From Escherichia phage T7, in sequence record LR745708: 40,606 bases of DNA; one strand, given 5' to 3'. This document shows, piece after piece, positions 24,006-40,606 of this stretch (the stretch's first letter is position 1; the number at the start of each line of letters is the position of its first letter). A program made the translations under genes and the position numbers. Under the pieces are notes generated by a model. It was not told the origin of the DNA and did no database searches. It was given only the letters and a program-made list of their open reading frames with translations.

Positions 24006-24160
24006 TGCTGGGGGTGGCCTCAACGGTCGCTGCTAGTCCCGAAGAGGCGAGTGTTACTTCAACAGAAGAAACCTTAACGCCAGCACAGGAGGCCGCACGC
24101 ACCCGCGCTGCTAACAAAGCCCGAAAGGAAGCTGAGTTGGCTGCTGCCACCGCTGAGTAA
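22968..24160 (+). CDS. 10B: Gene 10B minor capsid protein (-1 frameshift extension of 10A)
   Basis: Shifting to the -1 frame at the GGTTTTC region (~23988-23993) gives ...FQSGVMLGVASTVAASPEEASVTSTEETLTPAQEAARTRAANKARKEAELAAATAE, ending at TAA 24158-24160. Confidence 0.8.
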
Positions 24161-24163
24161 TAA

Positions 24164-24842: not shown

Positions 24843-27227
24843 ATGGCACTCATTAGCCAATCAATCAAGAACTTGAGGGGTGGTATCAGCCAACAGCCTG
24901 ACATCCTTCGTTATCCAGACCAAGGGTCACGCCAAGTTAACGGTTGGTCTTCGGAGACCGAGGGCCTCCAAAAGCGTCCACCTCTTGTTTTCTTAAATAC
25001 ACTTGGAGACAACGGTGCGTTAGGTCAAGCTCCGTACATCCACCTGATTAACCGAGATGAGCACGAACAGTATTACGCTGTGTTCACTGGTAGCGGAATC
25101 CGAGTGTTCGACCTTTCTGGTAACGAGAAGCAAGTTAGGTATCCTAACGGTTCCAACTACATCAAGACCGCTAATCCACGTAACGACCTGCGAATGGTTA
25201 CTGTAGCAGACTATACGTTCATCGTTAACCGTAACGTTGTTGCACAGAAGAACACAAAGTCTGTCAACTTACCGAATTACAACCCTAATCAAGACGGATT
25301 GATTAACGTTCGTGGTGGTCAGTATGGTAGGGAACTAATTGTACACATTAACGGTAAAGACGTTGCGAAGTATAAGATACCAGATGGTAGTCAACCTGAA
25401 CACGTAAACAATACGGATGCCCAATGGTTAGCTGAAGAGTTAGCCAAGCAGATGCGCACTAACTTGTCTGATTGGACTGTAAATGTAGGGCAAGGGTTCA
25501 TCCATGTGACCGCACCTAGTGGTCAACAGATTGACTCCTTCACGACTAAAGATGGCTACGCAGACCAGTTGATTAACCCTGTGACCCACTACGCTCAGTC
25601 GTTCTCTAAGCTGCCACCTAATGCTCCTAACGGCTACATGGTGAAAATCGTAGGGGACGCCTCTAAGTCTGCCGACCAGTATTACGTTCGGTATGACGCT
25701 GAGCGGAAAGTTTGGACTGAGACTTTAGGTTGGAACACTGAGGACCAAGTTCTATGGGAAACCATGCCACACGCTCTTGTGCGAGCCGCTGACGGTAATT
25801 TCGACTTCAAGTGGCTTGAGTGGTCTCCTAAGTCTTGTGGTGACGTTGACACCAACCCTTGGCCTTCTTTTGTTGGTTCAAGTATTAACGATGTGTTCTT
25901 CTTCCGTAACCGCTTAGGATTCCTTAGTGGGGAGAACATCATATTGAGTCGTACAGCCAAATACTTCAACTTCTACCCTGCGTCCATTGCGAACCTTAGT
26001 GATGACGACCCTATAGACGTAGCTGTGAGTACCAACCGAATAGCAATCCTTAAGTACGCCGTTCCGTTCTCAGAAGAGTTACTCATCTGGTCCGATGAAG
26101 CACAATTCGTCCTGACTGCCTCGGGTACTCTCACATCTAAGTCGGTTGAGTTGAACCTAACGACCCAGTTTGACGTACAGGACCGAGCGAGACCTTTTGG
26201 GATTGGGCGTAATGTCTACTTTGCTAGTCCGAGGTCCAGCTTCACGTCCATCCACAGGTACTACGCTGTGCAGGATGTCAGTTCCGTTAAGAATGCTGAG
26301 GACATTACATCACACGTTCCTAACTACATCCCTAATGGTGTGTTCAGTATTTGCGGAAGTGGTACGGAAAACTTCTGTTCGGTACTATCTCACGGGGACC
26401 CTAGTAAAATCTTCATGTACAAATTCCTGTACCTGAACGAAGAGTTAAGGCAACAGTCGTGGTCTCATTGGGACTTTGGGGAAAACGTACAGGTTCTAGC
26501 TTGTCAGAGTATCAGCTCAGATATGTATGTGATTCTTCGCAATGAGTTCAATACGTTCCTAGCTAGAATCTCTTTCACTAAGAACGCCATTGACTTACAG
26601 GGAGAACCCTATCGTGCCTTTATGGACATGAAGATTCGATACACGATTCCTAGTGGAACATACAACGATGACACATTCACTACCTCTATTCATATTCCAA
26701 CAATTTATGGTGCAAACTTCGGGAGGGGCAAAATCACTGTATTGGAGCCTGATGGTAAGATAACCGTGTTTGAGCAACCTACGGCTGGGTGGAATAGCGA
26801 CCCTTGGCTGAGACTCAGCGGTAACTTGGAGGGACGCATGGTGTACATTGGGTTCAACATTAACTTCGTATATGAGTTCTCTAAGTTCCTCATCAAGCAG
26901 ACTGCCGACGACGGGTCTACCTCCACGGAAGACATTGGGCGCTTACAGTTACGCCGAGCGTGGGTTAACTACGAGAACTCTGGTACGTTTGACATTTATG
27001 TTGAGAACCAATCGTCTAACTGGAAGTACACAATGGCTGGTGCCCGATTAGGCTCTAACACTCTGAGGGCTGGGAGACTGAACTTAGGGACCGGACAATA
27101 TCGATTCCCTGTGGTTGGTAACGCCAAGTTCAACACTGTATACATCTTGTCAGATGAGACTACCCCTCTGAACATCATTGGGTGTGGCTGGGAAGGTAAC
27201 TACTTACGGAGAAGTTCCGGTATTTAA
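24843..27227 (+). CDS. 12: Gene 12 tail tubular protein B
   Basis: 794-aa ORF MALISQSIKNLRGGISQQPD... Confidence 0.95.
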   Translation: MALISQSIKNLRGGISQQPDILRYPDQGSRQVNGWSSETEGLQKRPPLVFLNTLGDNGALGQAPYIHLINRDEHEQYYAVFTGSGIRVFDLSGNEKQVRYPNGSNYIKTANPRNDLRMVTVADYTFIVNRNVVAQKNTKSVNLPNYNPNQDGLINVRGGQYGRELIVHINGKDVAKYKIPDGSQPEHVNNTDAQWLAEELAKQMRTNLSDWTVNVGQGFIHVTAPSGQQIDSFTTKDGYADQLINPVTHYAQSFSKLPPNAPNGYMVKIVGDASKSADQYYVRYDAERKVWTETLGWNTEDQVLWETMPHALVRAADGNFDFKWLEWSPKSCGDVDTNPWPSFVGSSINDVFFFRNRLGFLSGENIILSRTAKYFNFYPASIANLSDDDPIDVAVSTNRIAILKYAVPFSEELLIWSDEAQFVLTASGTLTSKSVELNLTTQFDVQDRARPFGIGRNVYFASPRSSFTSIHRYYAVQDVSSVKNAEDITSHVPNYIPNGVFSICGSGTENFCSVLSHGDPSKIFMYKFLYLNEELRQQSWSHWDFGENVQVLACQSISSDMYVILRNEFNTFLARISFTKNAIDLQGEPYRAFMDMKIRYTIPSGTYNDDTFTTSIHIPTIYGANFGRGKITVLEPDGKITVFEQPTAGWNSDPWLRLSGNLEGRMVYIGFNINFVYEFSKFLIKQTADDGSTSTEDIGRLQLRRAWVNYENSGTFDIYVENQSSNWKYTMAGARLGSNTLRAGRLNLGTGQYRFPVVGNAKFNTVYILSDETTPLNIIGCGWEGNYLRRSSGI

Positions 27228-34624: not shown

Positions 34625-36682
34625 ATGGCTAACGTAATTAAAACCGTTTTGACTTACCAGTTAGATGGCTCCAATCGTGATTTTAATATCCCGTTTGAGT
34701 ATCTAGCCCGTAAGTTCGTAGTGGTAACTCTTATTGGTGTAGACCGAAAGGTCCTTACGATTAATACAGACTATCGCTTTGCTACACGTACTACTATCTC
34801 TCTGACAAAGGCTTGGGGTCCAGCCGATGGCTACACGACCATCGAGTTACGTCGAGTAACCTCCACTACCGACCGATTGGTTGACTTTACGGATGGTTCA
34901 ATCCTCCGCGCGTATGACCTTAACGTCGCTCAGATTCAAACGATGCACGTAGCGGAAGAGGCCCGTGACCTCACTACGGATACTATCGGTGTCAATAACG
35001 ATGGTCACTTGGATGCTCGTGGTCGTCGAATTGTGAACCTAGCGAACGCCGTGGATGACCGCGATGCTGTTCCGTTTGGTCAACTAAAGACCATGAACCA
35101 GAACTCATGGCAAGCACGTAATGAAGCCTTACAGTTCCGTAATGAGGCTGAGACTTTCAGAAACCAAGCGGAGGGCTTTAAGAACGAGTCCAGTACCAAC
35201 GCTACGAACACAAAGCAGTGGCGCGATGAGACCAAGGGTTTCCGAGACGAAGCCAAGCGGTTCAAGAATACGGCTGGTCAATACGCTACATCTGCTGGGA
35301 ACTCTGCTTCCGCTGCGCATCAATCTGAGGTAAACGCTGAGAACTCTGCCACAGCATCCGCTAACTCTGCTCATTTGGCAGAACAGCAAGCAGACCGTGC
35401 GGAACGTGAGGCAGACAAGCTGGAAAATTACAATGGATTGGCTGGTGCAATTGATAAGGTAGATGGAACCAATGTGTACTGGAAAGGAAATATTCACGCT
35501 AACGGGCGCCTTTACATGACCACAAACGGTTTTGACTGTGGCCAGTATCAACAGTTCTTTGGTGGTGTCACTAATCGTTACTCTGTCATGGAGTGGGGAG
35601 ATGAGAACGGATGGCTGATGTATGTTCAACGTAGAGAGTGGACAACAGCGATAGGCGGTAACATCCAGTTAGTAGTAAACGGACAGATCATCACCCAAGG
35701 TGGAGCCATGACCGGTCAGCTAAAATTGCAGAATGGGCATGTTCTTCAATTAGAGTCCGCATCCGACAAGGCGCACTATATTCTATCTAAAGATGGTAAC
35801 AGGAATAACTGGTACATTGGTAGAGGGTCAGATAACAACAATGACTGTACCTTCCACTCCTATGTACATGGTACGACCTTAACACTCAAGCAGGACTATG
35901 CAGTAGTTAACAAACACTTCCACGTAGGTCAGGCCGTTGTGGCCACTGATGGTAATATTCAAGGTACTAAGTGGGGAGGTAAATGGCTGGATGCTTACCT
36001 ACGTGACAGCTTCGTTGCGAAGAACGAATACAGCCTGTGGGACATCAAGTTTCGCCCGGCTGCGCTCGACCCGCGCGGCATGACGCTGGTTGCCGGCGCG
36101 TTTTGGGCAGACATCTATCTGCTAGGCGTCAACCACCTGACCGATGGCACCAGCAAATACAACGTGACAATTGCAGATGGTAGTGCATCACCTAAGAAAT
36201 CTACCAAGTTCGGTGGAGACGGCAGCGCGGCCTACAGTGACGGAGCTTGGTACAACTTCGCTGAGGTCATGACTCATCACGGTAAGCGCCTGCCTAACTA
36301 CAACGAATTCCAGGCGCTGGCTTTCGGCACGACCGAGGCTACGTCCAGCGGCGGCACCGACGTGCCCACCACCGGCGTGAACGGCACGGGCGCAACGAGT
36401 GCGTGGAACATCTTCACGTCCAAGTGGGGCGTTGTGCAGGCGTCCGGTTGCTTGTGGACGTGGGGTAACGAGTTCGGCGGCGTGAATGGCGCATCCGAAT
36501 ACACGGCCAACACTGGCGGCAGAGGATCGGTGTACGCCCAGCCCGCTGCTGCGCTATTCGGCGGCGCCTGGAACGGCACGTCGCTCTCGGGTTCTCGCGC
36601 TGCGCTCTGGTACAGCGGGCCGTCGTTCTCGTTCGCGTTCTTCGGGGCGCGCGGCGTCTGTGACCACCTGATTCTTGAGTAG
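34625..36682 (+). CDS. 17: Chimeric tail-fibre protein: T7 gp17 residues 1-466 fused to a heterologous ~219-aa C-terminal receptor-binding domain (Mtd-like C-type-lectin fold with DGR variable region)
   Basis: 685-aa ORF against 553 aa for native gp17 as I recall. Translation is T7 gp17 up to ...GGKWLDAYLRDSFVAK (codon 466, nt 36020-36022), then diverges into GC-rich sequence NEYSLWDIKFRPAALDPRGMTLVAGAFWADIYLLG...GARGVCDHLILE. Confidence 0.9.
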   Translation: MANVIKTVLTYQLDGSNRDFNIPFEYLARKFVVVTLIGVDRKVLTINTDYRFATRTTISLTKAWGPADGYTTIELRRVTSTTDRLVDFTDGSILRAYDLNVAQIQTMHVAEEARDLTTDTIGVNNDGHLDARGRRIVNLANAVDDRDAVPFGQLKTMNQNSWQARNEALQFRNEAETFRNQAEGFKNESSTNATNTKQWRDETKGFRDEAKRFKNTAGQYATSAGNSASAAHQSEVNAENSATASANSAHLAEQQADRAEREADKLENYNGLAGAIDKVDGTNVYWKGNIHANGRLYMTTNGFDCGQYQQFFGGVTNRYSVMEWGDENGWLMYVQRREWTTAIGGNIQLVVNGQIITQGGAMTGQLKLQNGHVLQLESASDKAHYILSKDGNRNNWYIGRGSDNNNDCTFHSYVHGTTLTLKQDYAVVNKHFHVGQAVVATDGNIQGTKWGGKWLDAYLRDSFVAKNEYSLWDIKFRPAALDPRGMTLVAGAFWADIYLLGVNHLTDGTSKYNVTIADGSASPKKSTKFGGDGSAAYSDGAWYNFAEVMTHHGKRLPNYNEFQALAFGTTEATSSGGTDVPTTGVNGTGATSAWNIFTSKWGVVQASGCLWTWGNEFGGVNGASEYTANTGGRGSVYAQPAAALFGGAWNGTSLSGSRAALWYSGPSFSFAFFGARGVCDHLILE
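36023..36682 (+). other. Heterologous graft within gene 17 (GC-rich; Mtd-like domain)
   Basis: Abrupt rise in G+C and change of codon usage relative to flanking T7 sequence; the encoded C-terminus ...AALFGGAWNGTSLSGSRAALWYSGPSFSFAFFGARGVCDHLILE resembles, from memory, the BPP-1 Mtd variable-region end. Confidence 0.65.
36544..36680 (+). other. Putative DGR variable region (VR) with IMH-like 3' end
   Basis: ~135-bp stretch that is strongly adenine-poor, with many NNC codons (gcc, aac, ggc, ctc, tac, agc, ttc x4), ending in a GC-only run (ggggcgcgcggcg) and tctgtgaccacctgattcttgag. Confidence 0.6.
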
Positions 36683-36701
36683 CGGGGCCGAAAGGCCCCG
36701 C
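36682..36701 (+). promoter_or_regulatory. GC-rich hairpin with GAAA loop straddling the gene 17 stop (DGR target-recognition hairpin/cruciform-like)
   Basis: gcggggcc-GAAA-ggccccgc: a perfect 8-bp stem with a 4-nt GAAA loop, directly readable. Confidence 0.7.
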
Positions 36702-36723
36702 CAAGGCAACCGTACTCGAACCA

Positions 36724-36760
36724 CTAGCCCGCTCTTATCGGGCGGCTAGGGGTTTTTTGT
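36724..36760 (+). terminator. Putative terminator-like element (imperfect hairpin + G4T6)
   Basis: ctagcccgctcttatcgggcggctag forms an imperfect stem, followed by gggttttttg, which mimics the tail of Tphi (gaggggttttttg). Confidence 0.4.
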
Positions 36761-36784
36761 GATTTACTTTAAGGAGGTCAAATG
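36761..36784 (+). promoter_or_regulatory. Duplicated gene 17 ribosome-binding site driving trxA
   Basis: gatttactttaaggaggtcaaATG at 36761-36784 is identical to 34604-34627, the native gene 17 RBS and start. Confidence 0.9.
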
Positions 36785-37111
36785 AGCGATAAAATCATTC
36801 ACCTGACCGATGACTCTTTTGATACCGACGTGCTGAAAGCTGATGGTGCAATTCTGGTTGATTTCTGGGCAGAGTGGTGCGGCCCTTGCAAAATGATCGC
36901 TCCAATCCTGGACGAAATTGCGGACGAATATCAGGGTAAGCTGACTGTGGCCAAACTGAACATTGACCAGAACCCTGGCACCGCACCGAAATACGGTATC
37001 CGTGGCATCCCAACTCTGCTGCTGTTCAAAAACGGTGAAGTGGCAGCAACCAAAGTAGGCGCTCTGTCTAAAGGCCAACTGAAAGAGTTCCTGGACGCCA
37101 ACCTGGCTTAA
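36782..37111 (+). CDS. trxA: Thioredoxin 1 (E. coli TrxA, identical protein), inserted into the phage genome
   Basis: 109-aa product [109 protein letters not shown] with the CGPC active site; not a T7 gene. Confidence 0.97.
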
Positions 37112-37172
37112 TGATTGGTAAATCACAAGGAAAGACGTGTAGTCCACGGATGGACTCTCAAGGAGGTACAAG

Positions 37173-37376
37173 GTGCTATCATTAGACTTTAACAACGAAT
37201 TGATTAAGGCTGCTCCAATTGTTGGGACGGGTGTAGCAGATGTTAGTGCTCGACTGTTCTTTGGGTTAAGCCTTAACGAATGGTTCTACGTTGCTGCTAT
37301 CGCCTACACAGTGGTTCAGATTGGTGCCAAGGTAGTCGATAAGATGATTGACTGGAAGAAAGCCAATAAGGAGTGA
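37173..37376 (+). CDS. 17.5: Gene 17.5 holin
   Basis: GTG at 37173 after AGGAGG; 67 aa with a hydrophobic core, MLSLDFNNELIKAAPIVGTGVADVSARLFFGL... Confidence 0.85.
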   Translation: MLSLDFNNELIKAAPIVGTGVADVSARLFFGLSLNEWFYVAAIAYTVVQIGAKVVDKMIDWKKANKE

Positions 37377-37381
37377 TATGT

Positions 37382-37651
37382 ATGGAAAAGGATAAGAGCC
37401 TTATTACATTCTTAGAGATGTTGGACACTGCGATGGCTCAGCGTATGCTTGCGGACCTTTCGGACCATGAGCGTCGCTCTCCGCAACTCTATAATGCTAT
37501 TAACAAACTGTTAGACCGCCACAAGTTCCAGATTGGTAAGTTGCAGCCGGATGTTCACATCTTAGGTGGCCTTGCTGGTGCTCTTGAAGAGTACAAAGAG
37601 AAAGTCGGTGATAACGGTCTTACGGATGATGATATTTACACATTACAGTGA
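37382..37651 (+). CDS. 18: Gene 18 terminase small subunit
   Basis: ATG at 37382; 89 aa MEKDKSLITFLEMLDTAMAQRM...; ORF-track start 37373 is an upstream extension. Confidence 0.85.
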   Translation: MEKDKSLITFLEMLDTAMAQRMLADLSDHERRSPQLYNAINKLLDRHKFQIGKLQPDVHILGGLAGALEEYKEKVGDNGLTDDDIYTLQ

Positions 37652-37692
37652 TATACTCAAGGCCACTACAGATAGTGGTCTTTATGGATGTC
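37652..37692 (+). promoter_or_regulatory. RNase III processing site R18.5
   Basis: tatactcaaggccactacagatagtggtctttatggatg hairpin motif. Confidence 0.5.
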
Positions 37693-37745
37693 ATTGTCTA
37701 TACGAGATGCTCCTACGTGAAATCTGAAAGTTAACGGGAGGCATT

Positions 37746-38177
37746 ATGCTAGAATTTTTACGTAAGCTAATCCCTTGGGTTCTCGCTGGGATGCTATTCG
37801 GGTTAGGATGGCATCTAGGGTCAGACTCAATGGACGCTAAATGGAAACAGGAGGTACACAATGAGTACGTTAAGAGAGTTGAGGCTGCGAAGAGCACTCA
37901 AAGAGCAATCGATGCGGTATCTGCTAAGTATCAAGAAGACCTTGCCGCGCTGGAAGGGAGCACTGATAGGATTATTTCTGATTTGCGTAGCGACAATAAG
38001 CGGTTGCGCGTCAGAGTCAAAACTACCGGAACCTCCGATGGTCAGTGTGGATTCGAGCCTGATGGTCGAGCCGAACTTGACGACCGAGATGCTAAACGTA
38101 TTCTCGCAGTGACCCAGAAGGGTGACGCATGGATTCGTGCGTTACAGGATACTATTCGTGAACTGCAACGTAAGTAG
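37746..38177 (+). CDS. 18.5: Gene 18.5 spanin (Rz-like, inner-membrane component)
   Basis: 143 aa with an N-terminal transmembrane segment (LIPWVLAGMLFGLGWHLG). Confidence 0.85.
   Translation: MLEFLRKLIPWVLAGMLFGLGWHLGSDSMDAKWKQEVHNEYVKRVEAAKSTQRAIDAVSAKYQEDLAALEGSTDRIISDLRSDNKRLRVRVKTTGTSDGQCGFEPDGRAELDDRDAKRILAVTQKGDAWIRALQDTIRELQRK
37861..38112 (+). CDS. 18.7: Gene 18.7 spanin (Rz1-like), embedded in 18.5 in another frame
   Basis: 83-aa ORF nested inside 18.5; contains a lipobox-like LICVATISGCAS. Confidence 0.7.
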   Translation: MSTLRELRLRRALKEQSMRYLLSIKKTLPRWKGALIGLFLICVATISGCASESKLPEPPMVSVDSSLMVEPNLTTEMLNVFSQ

Positions 38178-38198
38178 GAAATCAAGTAAGGAGGCAAT

Positions 38199-39959
38199 GT
38201 GTCTACTCAATCCAATCGTAATGCGCTCGTAGTGGCGCAACTGAAAGGAGACTTCGTGGCGTTCCTATTCGTCTTATGGAAGGCGCTAAACCTACCGGTG
38301 CCCACTAAGTGTCAGATTGACATGGCTAAGGTGCTGGCGAATGGAGACAACAAGAAGTTCATCTTACAGGCTTTCCGTGGTATCGGTAAGTCGTTCATCA
38401 CATGTGCGTTCGTTGTGTGGTCCTTATGGAGAGACCCTCAGTTGAAGATACTTATCGTATCAGCCTCTAAGGAGCGTGCAGACGCTAACTCCATCTTTAT
38501 TAAGAACATCATTGACCTGCTGCCATTCCTATCTGAGTTAAAGCCAAGACCCGGACAGCGTGACTCGGTAATCAGCTTTGATGTAGGCCCAGCCAATCCT
38601 GACCACTCTCCTAGTGTGAAATCAGTAGGTATCACTGGTCAGTTAACTGGTAGCCGTGCTGACATTATCATTGCGGATGACGTTGAGATTCCGTCTAACA
38701 GCGCAACTATGGGTGCCCGTGAGAAGCTATGGACTCTGGTTCAGGAGTTCGCTGCGTTACTTAAACCGCTGCCTTCCTCTCGCGTTATCTACCTTGGTAC
38801 ACCTCAGACAGAGATGACTCTCTATAAGGAACTTGAGGATAACCGTGGGTACACAACCATTATCTGGCCTGCTCTGTACCCAAGGACACGTGAAGAGAAC
38901 CTCTATTACTCACAGCGTCTTGCTCCTATGTTACGCGCTGAGTACGATGAGAACCCTGAGGCACTTGCTGGGACTCCAACAGACCCAGTGCGCTTTGACC
39001 GTGATGACCTGCGCGAGCGTGAGTTGGAATACGGTAAGGCTGGCTTTACGCTACAGTTCATGCTTAACCCTAACCTTAGTGATGCCGAGAAGTACCCGCT
39101 GAGGCTTCGTGACGCTATCGTAGCGGCCTTAGACTTAGAGAAGGCCCCAATGCATTACCAGTGGCTTCCGAACCGTCAGAACATCATTGAGGACCTTCCT
39201 AACGTTGGCCTTAAGGGTGATGACCTGCATACGTACCACGATTGTTCCAACAACTCAGGTCAGTACCAACAGAAGATTCTGGTCATTGACCCTAGTGGTC
39301 GCGGTAAGGACGAAACAGGTTACGCTGTGCTGTACACACTGAACGGTTACATCTACCTTATGGAAGCTGGAGGTTTCCGTGATGGCTACTCCGATAAGAC
39401 CCTTGAGTTACTCGCTAAGAAGGCAAAGCAATGGGGAGTCCAGACGGTTGTCTACGAGAGTAACTTCGGTGACGGTATGTTCGGTAAGGTATTCAGTCCT
39501 ATCCTTCTTAAACACCACAACTGTGCGATGGAAGAGATTCGTGCCCGTGGTATGAAAGAGATGCGTATTTGCGATACCCTTGAGCCAGTCATGCAGACTC
39601 ACCGCCTTGTAATTCGTGATGAGGTCATTAGGGCCGACTACCAGTCCGCTCGTGACGTAGACGGTAAGCATGACGTTAAGTACTCGTTGTTCTACCAGAT
39701 GACCCGTATCACTCGTGAGAAAGGCGCTCTGGCTCATGATGACCGATTGGATGCCCTTGCGTTAGGCATTGAGTATCTCCGTGAGTCCATGCAGTTGGAT
39801 TCCGTTAAGGTCGAGGGTGAAGTACTTGCTGACTTCCTTGAGGAACACATGATGCGTCCTACGGTTGCTGCTACGCATATCATTGAGATGTCTGTGGGAG
39901 GAGTTGATGTGTACTCTGAGGACGATGAGGGTTACGGTACGTCTTTCATTGAGTGGTGA
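38199..39959 (+). CDS. 19: Gene 19 terminase large subunit
   Basis: GTG at 38199 after AGGAGG; 586 aa [19 protein letters not shown]... Confidence 0.95.
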
Positions 39960-40040
39960 TTTATGCATTAGGACTGCATAGGGATGCACTATAGACCACG
40001 GATGGTCAGTTCTTTAAGTTACTGAAAAGACACGATAAAT

Positions 40041-40063
40041 TAATACGACTCACTATAGGGAGA
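40041..40063 (+). promoter_or_regulatory. T7 promoter phiOR
   Basis: taatacgactcactatagggaga. Confidence 0.9.
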
Positions 40064-40217
40064 GGAGGGACGAAAGGTTACTATATAGATACTGAATGAA
40101 TACTTATAGAGTGCATAAAGTATGCATAATGGTGTACCTAGAGTGACCTCTAAGAATGGTGATTATATTGTATTAGTATCACCTTAACTTAAGGACCAAC
40201 ATAAAGGGAGGAGACTC

Positions 40218-40367
40218 ATGTTCCGCTTATTGTTGAACCTACTGCGGCATAGAGTCACCTACCGATTTCTTGTGGTACTTTGTGCTGCCCTTGGGTACGC
40301 ATCTCTTACTGGAGACCTCAGTTCACTGGAGTCTGTCGTTTGCTCTATACTCACTTGTAGCGATTAG
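40218..40367 (+). CDS. 19.5: Gene 19.5
   Basis: ATG at 40218 after GGGAGGAG; 49 aa MFRLLLNLLRHRVTYRFLVVLCAALG... Confidence 0.7.
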   Translation: MFRLLLNLLRHRVTYRFLVVLCAALGYASLTGDLSSLESVVCSILTCSD

Positions 40368-40439
40368 GGTCTTCCTGACCGACTGATGGCTCACCGAGGG
40401 ATTCAGCGGTATGATTGCATCACACCACTTCATCCCTAT

Positions 40440-40606
40440 AGAGTCAAGTCCTAAGGTATACCCATAAAGAGCCTCTAATGGTCTATCCTAAGGTCTATAC
40501 CTAAAGATAGGCCATCCTATCAGTGTCACCTAAAGAGGGTCTTAGAGAGGGCCTATGGAGTTCCTATAGGGTCCTTTAAAATATACCATAAAAATCTGAG
40601 TGACTA
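40440..40606. repeat. Right-end short CCTAAAG-like repeat region, ending immediately before the right terminal repeat
   Basis: cctaaggt..., acctaaagataggcc, cacctaaagaggg repeats; window ends ...aaatctgagtgacta, the sequence I recall directly preceding the terminal repeat. Confidence 0.6.

Follow-up and report, generated by a model that had tools for sequence, protein, structure and literature searches.

A copy of the BPP-1 variable repeat at the end of a chimeric tail fibre gene in a phage T7 genome

Why should the last codons of a tail fibre gene in a T7 genome be so poor in adenine? The question is raised by the 3' end of a 685-codon open reading frame in the window, that is, the whole stretch of 40,606 nucleotides analysed here (Escherichia phage T7, record LR745708). 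The initial annotation of this stretch had described it as depleted of adenines and rich in codons of the form NNC, and had interpreted this pattern as the mutational footprint of a DGR variable region, produced by adenine-specific mutagenic retrohoming. The reading frame is a chimera, and the stretch in question lies at its end:

34625..36022, + strand: part of T7 gene 17, encoding gp17 residues 1-466 (alignment with T7 V01146), with the N-terminal tail-attachment domain, the shaft, and the gp37-like trimerisation region
36023..36682, + strand: synthetic segment encoding residues 163-381 of BPP-1 Mtd plus the stop codon, fused in frame (tblastn, nucleotide alignment, and g-block)
36544-36680, + strand: adenine-poor stretch, at the 3' end of the open reading frame 34625..36682

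Adenine content and codon usage at the end of the gene

The adenine depletion is confirmed by direct counting. The stretch 36544-36680 contains 10 adenines in 137 nt (7.3%), in comparison with 27.1% in the whole window, and is ranked 23rd lowest among the 40,470 sliding segments of 137 nt, with 22 of the 40,470 being equally poor or poorer. The adenine-poorest of these segments all overlap 36544-36680, and the minimum is found at the same spot. The earlier estimate of about 8 adenines in about 105 nt was close, although the first 105 nt in fact contain 6, while the 134 nt from 36544 to 36677, which correspond to the variable repeat (VR) described below, contain 9 (6.7%).

The depletion also holds against the local background, given that the part of the Mtd segment located 5' of the VR has 21.7% adenine, while the T7 DNA has 28.1%, and the native BPP-1 mtd gene, 5' of its own VR, has 19.7%. 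The binomial probability of nine or fewer adenines in 134 nt is 2e-6 when the background is taken from the Mtd segment, and 2e-5 when it is taken from the native mtd. In the template repeat (TR) of BPP-1, the copy of the same 134 bp contains 25 adenines (18.7%).

The codon pattern is a less reliable guide. The 11 NNC codons named at the outset (gcc, aac, ggc, ctc, ctc, tac, agc, and four ttc) are all present, and all in frame. Codons ending in C account for 20 of the 45 codons in 36544-36680 (44%), however, against 45% over the 173 codons of the Mtd segment just 5' of it; the T7 part of the frame has 26%. The NNC richness is the usual codon usage of GC-rich Bordetella-phage DNA and is not specific to the VR, which means that, as a sign of the footprint, the codons themselves are real, but their frequency is undistinctive.

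Identity with VR1 of BPP-1 and comparison with the template repeat

A blastn search of positions 36000-36790 against phage genomes recovered the Bordetella phages BPP-1, BMP-1, BIP-1, and vB_BbrP_003, together with two records named "Escherichia phage T7". The BPP-1 match (AY029185.2) spans the mtd gene as well as two annotated features, "variable region 1" and "template repeat". As the annotated 134-bp VR1 is present as an exact string at 36544-36677, the VR begins at position 36544, precisely where the initial annotation had started the stretch. Phage vB_BbrP_003 also has an identical VR. The agreement with BPP-1 continues for a further 35 bases beyond the VR, past the hairpin, as far as 36712, and thus includes the stop codon and the inverted repeat with its GAAA loop. 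The elements of the target site are as follows:

36544..36677, + strand: variable repeat VR1 of the BPP-1 DGR, 134 bp, Mtd-P1 reference allele (exact string match with AY029185.2 3443-3576)
36566..36641, + strand: diversified core of the VR, with 17 substitutions at TR positions 23-98, and 10 AAC-derived codons plus one ATC-derived codon
36643..36677, + strand: IMH, the cis element by which the VR is recognised as the recipient, made up of 14 nt of G and C only (36643-36656) and then a 21-bp element (36657-36677), with exact boundaries inferred from the sequence
36682..36701, + strand: predicted hairpin or cruciform of the DGR target, with 8-bp stems, GCGGGGCC and GGCCCCGC, and a GAAA loop, at +5 to +24 after the VR

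The position-by-position comparison of the VR with the TR of BPP-1 reveals 22 differences in total. In TR positions 1-112, which include 23 adenines, all 17 of the differences (17/17) fall on adenines of the TR (hypergeometric P = 1.9e-15), and the 10 AAC codons and one ATC codon of the TR are represented in the VR by GCC, AAC, GGC, CTC, CTC, TAC, AGC, and four TTC. The other five differences are found at TR positions 120-128 (C>A, T>C, A>T, C>G, and C>A), four of them at positions that are not adenines. These five are the same in BPP-1, BMP-1, BIP-1, and vB_BbrP_003 and, being common to all the natural alleles, they represent the fixed distinction between IMH and IMH*, rather than products of mutagenesis. 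The natural alleles otherwise differ from the TR at the same adenine positions (9/9 in BMP-1 and 10/11 in BIP-1).

The alignment with the BPP-1 TR that had been proposed as a check on the footprint reading thus places every mismatch of the mutable part on a TR adenine, as expected of a DGR target compared with its cognate TR, which in this case is external to the window. Mismatches away from adenines, which had been named in advance as evidence against this reading, do exist, but the four found are all located in the IMH, and are invariant among the alleles. The stretch 36544-36677 is an exact copy of BPP-1 VR1, that is, of the Mtd-P1 allele, and is a DGR target site. The reading of the stretch as a DGR variable-region footprint is upheld by the exact copy and by the 17/17 adenine pattern, with the mutagenesis belonging to BPP-1, elsewhere than in this genome. 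The suggestion that the encoded residues are those of a selected VR variant survives in part, in that the sequence is a product of mutagenic retrohoming, but it is the reference Mtd-P1 allele, and is neither new nor selected here.

The elements that act in cis on the recipient side have been retained together with the VR. According to Guo et al. 2011 (PMC3240598), a DGR recipient needs an IMH with (GC)14 and 21-bp elements, as well as homology with the TR, and the 24 bp downstream from the VR are also required, including inverted repeats of 8 bp on either side of a GRNA loop. The window has the G/C-rich 14-mer, followed by a 21-bp element that is distinct from IMH*, and it is this element, at 36657-36677, that bears the five fixed differences. 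The prediction of DNA folding returns the stem-loop GCGGGGCC-GAAA-GGCCCCGC at 36682-36701, which agrees with the stem length of 8 bp and the GRNA loop required in the approximately 24 bp downstream from the VR. The recognition elements that were sufficient in the targets transplanted by Guo et al. 2011, in which the IMH and hairpin were placed behind a heterologous gene, are thus also found in the window. In those experiments, avd, TR, and brt came from a donor plasmid, whereas there is no donor in either this genome or the published experiment from which it appears to derive.

The chimeric gene and its T7 backbone

The upstream part of the window, 1-36022, is 99.99% identical to T7 V01146 1-36021, with two substitutions and one inserted base, while the downstream part, 37114-40606, is 100% identical to T7 36285-39777. 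Between the two, a 1,091-bp insert (36023-37113) substitutes for T7 36022-36284, and outside this insert, the window is plain T7. The T7 nucleotides 36022-36284 encode the gp17 tip (residues 467-553), which has been replaced in the window. The chimeric protein matches the Pfam families Phage_T7_tail (residues 1-162) and gp37_trimer (residues 371-464), and thus retains from gp17 its N-terminal domain and gp37-like trimerisation region, but not its receptor-binding tip. The extent of the T7 part, residues 1-466, is also given in the annotation of LR745707.1 and in Table S4 of Grigonyte et al. 2020.

In the Mtd part, a tblastn search with Mtd 163-382 found 100% amino-acid identity over 219 residues (Mtd 163-381), and, of the solved structures, Mtd-P1 (PDB 1yu0) matches best (phmmer E = 2e-147). 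The segment is identified by this identity as Mtd (major tropism determinant), a receptor-binding protein with the C-type-lectin fold, with only the C-terminal 219 residues present, and Mtd 1-162 missing. The nucleotide sequence has 25 mismatches, between 36052 and 36523, with mtd nt 487-1146 of AY029185.2, all of them synonymous, and all of them changes from G/C to A/T. In comparison with the native BPP-1 gene, then, the window encodes the same residues 163-381, but has them fused to gp17 in place of Mtd 1-162, and is recoded upstream of the VR.

The remainder of the insert, beyond the end of the BPP-1 sequence, contains three further elements:

36713..36760, + strand: synthetic 48-bp terminator-like element, with an interrupted hairpin followed by GGGGTTTTTTGT, which folds as a hairpin plus T-run
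36771-36777, + strand: consensus Shine-Dalgarno sequence, AAGGAGG, located 5' of trxA
36782..37111, + strand: recoded E. coli trxA selection marker (Pfam Thioredoxin, E = 8e-35)

The 48-bp element is an insertion relative to LR745707.1 and is also absent from BPP-1. No match to it was found by blastn in the phage and plasmid collections, and the end of the mtd g-block printed in the supplement of Grigonyte et al. 2020 is its sole known source. It was not flagged by a scan for consensus terminators, due to the interruption of its stem. The best PDB match of the trxA product is a TrxA/Thioredoxin chain, with all 109 residues aligned, followed by entries for E. coli-type Thioredoxin 1. The DNA, in turn, is only 86.1% identical to the trxA of all 5,426 complete E. 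coli genomes, which indicates that the gene has been recoded, given that the protein matches E. coli Trx1.

This arrangement is already known, as the whole of it has been published. Grigonyte et al. 2020 (Viruses 12:193, PMC7077284) used homologous recombination to fuse the tail fibre of T7 with those of BPP-1 and Yep-phi, selecting for a trxA marker on a trxA-deleted host. All the T7/BPP-1 chimeras were reportedly non-infective, and wild-type gp17 was needed in trans; no DGR functions were supplied (PMC7077284). Design 3 of Table S4, phAG_3, joins gp17 1-466 to Mtd 163-382 (mtd nt 489-1146), which is consistent with the junction of the window at mtd nt 487. The only SNV given for phAG_3 in Table S6, T7 24876 A>G, is found at window position 24877. 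On the basis of the design coordinates and this one SNV, the window appears to match phage phAG_3.

In the synthetic mtd g-block printed in the supplement (PMC7077284), the VR is followed by TAG, the hairpin, and, at the very end, the terminator-like tail. At a few single bases, the machine-read text of this block disagrees with the window (GAACCCTAGCC versus GAACCACTAGCC, for example), which may represent losses during extraction from the PDF.

No record identical to the window is present in the phage collection searched, where the closest is LR745707.1, a member of the phAG series (PRJEB35760), which covers 99% of it in two pieces. This record is annotated as a chimaera of the T7 tail fibre (gp17 1-466) and the BPP1 tail fibre (Mtd), and has trxA in the same place as in the window. 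It shares the T7 backbone, the idea of the gp17 1-466/Mtd fusion, the recoded trxA, and the VR with the window, but differs from it by 24 bp at the junction, where the window has eight more Mtd codons and starts Mtd at residue 163. As the tail-fibre CDS of LR745707.1 is eight codons shorter, its Mtd part would start at approximately residue 171. It also lacks the 48-bp terminator-like element that follows the hairpin in the window.

Missing DGR machinery and the origin of the repeat

The components that act in trans were each searched for in the window. The blastn search with the BPP-1 TR and its flanks had a single match in the window, the VR itself (36544-36662), with no second copy. In the tblastn searches, the best hit of the reverse transcriptase Brt had E = 0.38 over 39 aa, and that of Avd (bbp7) had E = 1.2 over 15 aa, both at chance level. 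As the TR, the reverse transcriptase, and Avd were all tested for, and none was found, the locus, represented by a single consensus sequence, lies outside the class of complete DGRs and, in their absence, retrohoming would be impossible here. While the copy of VR1 in the window is unchanged from that of BPP-1, then, it is detached from the DGR of its native setting, with no TR, avd, or brt. The VR is an orphan DGR target, with no active diversification system, and its footprint is static and inherited, given that the parts needed in trans (TR RNA, Avd, and bRT) are absent.

Other histories could be proposed for a stretch of this kind. One is that GC-rich Bordetella-phage DNA, by virtue of its base composition and codon usage, would show the pattern simply by being set beside the AT-richer T7, with no mutagenic history. 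The entire Mtd segment is indeed poorer in adenine than T7 (21.7% vs. 28.1%), and the NNC codons are as frequent just upstream (45%) as in the VR (44%), against 26% in the T7 part, so that this account is accepted for the NNC statistic. It is rejected for the adenine depletion, since the 6.7% of the VR is far below both the recoded (21.7%) and the native (19.7%) backgrounds (P ~2e-6 and ~2e-5, respectively), the same 134 bp in the TR retains its 25 adenines (18.7%), and the missing adenines match those of the TR one for one (P = 1.9e-15). As an explanation of the stretch, it is very improbable. The swapping of tail-fibre tips among phages is common in nature, and this, together with the in-frame fusion at a domain boundary, would be compatible with a natural recombinant, in which a T7-like phage gained a DGR-diversified receptor-binding domain by horizontal transfer. 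The flanks, however, are 99.99-100% identical to laboratory T7, the 25 purely synonymous G/C-to-A/T changes in Mtd are clustered as in a synthesis-optimised block, and the fusion is followed by an E. coli trxA that has been recoded and provided with a consensus RBS. A natural origin is excluded by the recoding of both Mtd and trxA, and by the match of the design, junction, and SNV with the published construct, and its probability is vanishingly small.

It might also be supposed that the phage has an active DGR, and that the VR is a variant newly selected while the chimeric T7 was being propagated. All the target elements are indeed intact (VR, IMH, and the hairpin located at +5 to +24), and the BPP-1 DGR can function in E. 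coli when reconstituted (PMC12875486). The window nevertheless has no TR, Avd, or Brt, its VR is the reference BPP-1 allele, as in the ordered g-block, and Grigonyte et al. 2020 provided no DGR functions for their T7/BPP-1 chimeras, all of which were reported as non-infective. An active system is excluded because its parts are missing and the VR is identical to the reference allele, which makes this reading extremely improbable.

The identity of the sequence, the way in which it differs from the TR, the lack of the trans components, the marks of synthesis, and the agreement with the published design are all direct observations, and the stretch 36544-36677 is almost certainly a copy of BPP-1 VR1, carried with its inherited footprint in the laboratory-made gp17 1-466/Mtd 163-381 gene of an engineered T7. 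The history of this copy began in the BPP-1 lineage, where adenine-specific mutagenic retrohoming converted the AAC and ATC codons of the TR to GCC, GGC, CTC, CTC, TAC, AGC, and four TTC. The outcome in that lineage was the pertactin-binding Mtd-P1 allele, selected for binding, the sequence of which was then ordered as a synthetic g-block. Recombination brought this block into T7, where it took over from the gp17 tip domain, with the recoded trxA providing the selection on a trxA-deleted host. On its arrival in T7, the VR kept its cis features (the homology with the TR, the IMH, and the GAAA hairpin), and lost the parts that act in trans (TR RNA, Avd, and bRT).

With the machinery provided, the VR would presumably still function as a recipient. 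As the recipient site is complete, with the VR, the IMH, and the hairpin, the T7 genome could be diversified by a DGR supplied in trans. It is possible, but doubtful, that the provision of the BPP-1 avd-TR-brt in trans, in E. coli, would yield a self-diversifying library of T7 receptor-binding proteins, with 12 variable Mtd codons. If this were true, the construct would be usable as a recipient for DGR mutagenesis supplied in trans. This diversification is an engineering possibility rather than a natural novelty, and is limited by the reported non-infectivity of all the T7/Mtd chimeras.

As a discovery, a published synthetic construct that contains a textbook DGR variable region carries little weight. 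It does serve as a positive control, the start of the repeat having been placed to the exact base from the letters of the sequence. It also demonstrates that the footprint of a DGR is possible in a genome that has no DGR. The adenine depletion and the NNC codons reveal the history of a VR, and not a working system, and the recognition of an active DGR requires the TR, the reverse transcriptase, and Avd.

Substitutions in the T7 backbone and the genome ends

Compared with the reference sequence V01146, the T7 backbone of the window carries an additional A at window 1896, in the gene 0.6 region. This base is probably the single-nucleotide correction already known for the T7 sequence as first determined; T7 records of later date have a length of 39,938 bp. 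The A→G substitution at window 24877 (T7 nt 24876), in gene 12, identifies the window as phAG_3, the design 3 phage of Grigonyte et al. 2020 (PMC7077284), given that Table S6 of that paper lists a K→R change at T7 nt 24876 of gene 12 among the SNVs of this phage. The C→T substitution at window 24158 (T7 V01146 nt 24157) converts CAA, the final sense codon in gene 10B, to TAA, creating a stop one codon ahead of the normal one (24160-24162). It is not among the phAG_3 SNVs of Table S6 (Grigonyte et al. 2020, PMC7077284), and is therefore probably a trait of the authors' wild-type T7 stock.

The right end of the window, at 40606, corresponds to T7 nt 39777. The 160-bp terminal repeat is represented by its left copy only (window 1-160), and the right-hand copy was most likely lost when the two direct repeats were collapsed into one during assembly.

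The terminator-like element and the trxA marker

Two features of the inserted cassette are located downstream from the hairpin of the diversity-generating retroelement (DGR):

36713-36760, terminator-like element of 48 bp, TACTCGAACCACTAGCCCGCTCTTATCGGGCGGCTAGGGGTTTTTTGT, between the DGR hairpin and trxA
36782-37111, trxA marker, synonymously recoded, as determined by nucleotide and protein comparison

The terminator-like element is absent from LR745707.1, the sibling engineered T7 record, and found no match in either the phage collection or the plasmid collection. In every one of the 5,426 complete E. coli genomes, trxA shares 86.1% nucleotide identity with the marker, whose protein nevertheless matches E. 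coli thioredoxin 1. Presumably, the recoding was meant to keep the marker from recombining with the host, or else to facilitate synthesis. The ribosome-binding site (RBS) upstream of trxA (window 36768-36781), read directly as TTTAAGGAGGTCAA-ATG, does not look like part B0034 when it is set against the sequence that we take this part to have, AAAGAGGAGAAA. The RBS given in Table S2 of the source paper is B0034 (Grigonyte et al. 2020, PMC7077284).

Recoding of the Mtd segment and the natural BIP-1 allele

The nucleotide alignment of the native BPP-1 mtd with window 36052-36523 revealed 25 synonymous changes, from G/C to A/T, which are most crowded at 36169-36295 and include CGC→AGA at 36521/36523. 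None of the 25 lies inside the variable repeat, the IMH, or the hairpin, and these changes fit a lowering of the GC content for g-block synthesis.

In the natural VR1 allele of the Bordetella phage BIP-1, comparison with the BPP-1 template repeat (TR) recovered one non-adenine difference, G→C at TR position 88 (position 909 of the BIP-1 sequence, L006), which adjoins a mutated AAC codon. The change is a rare case of a natural DGR allele being substituted at a position other than an adenine.
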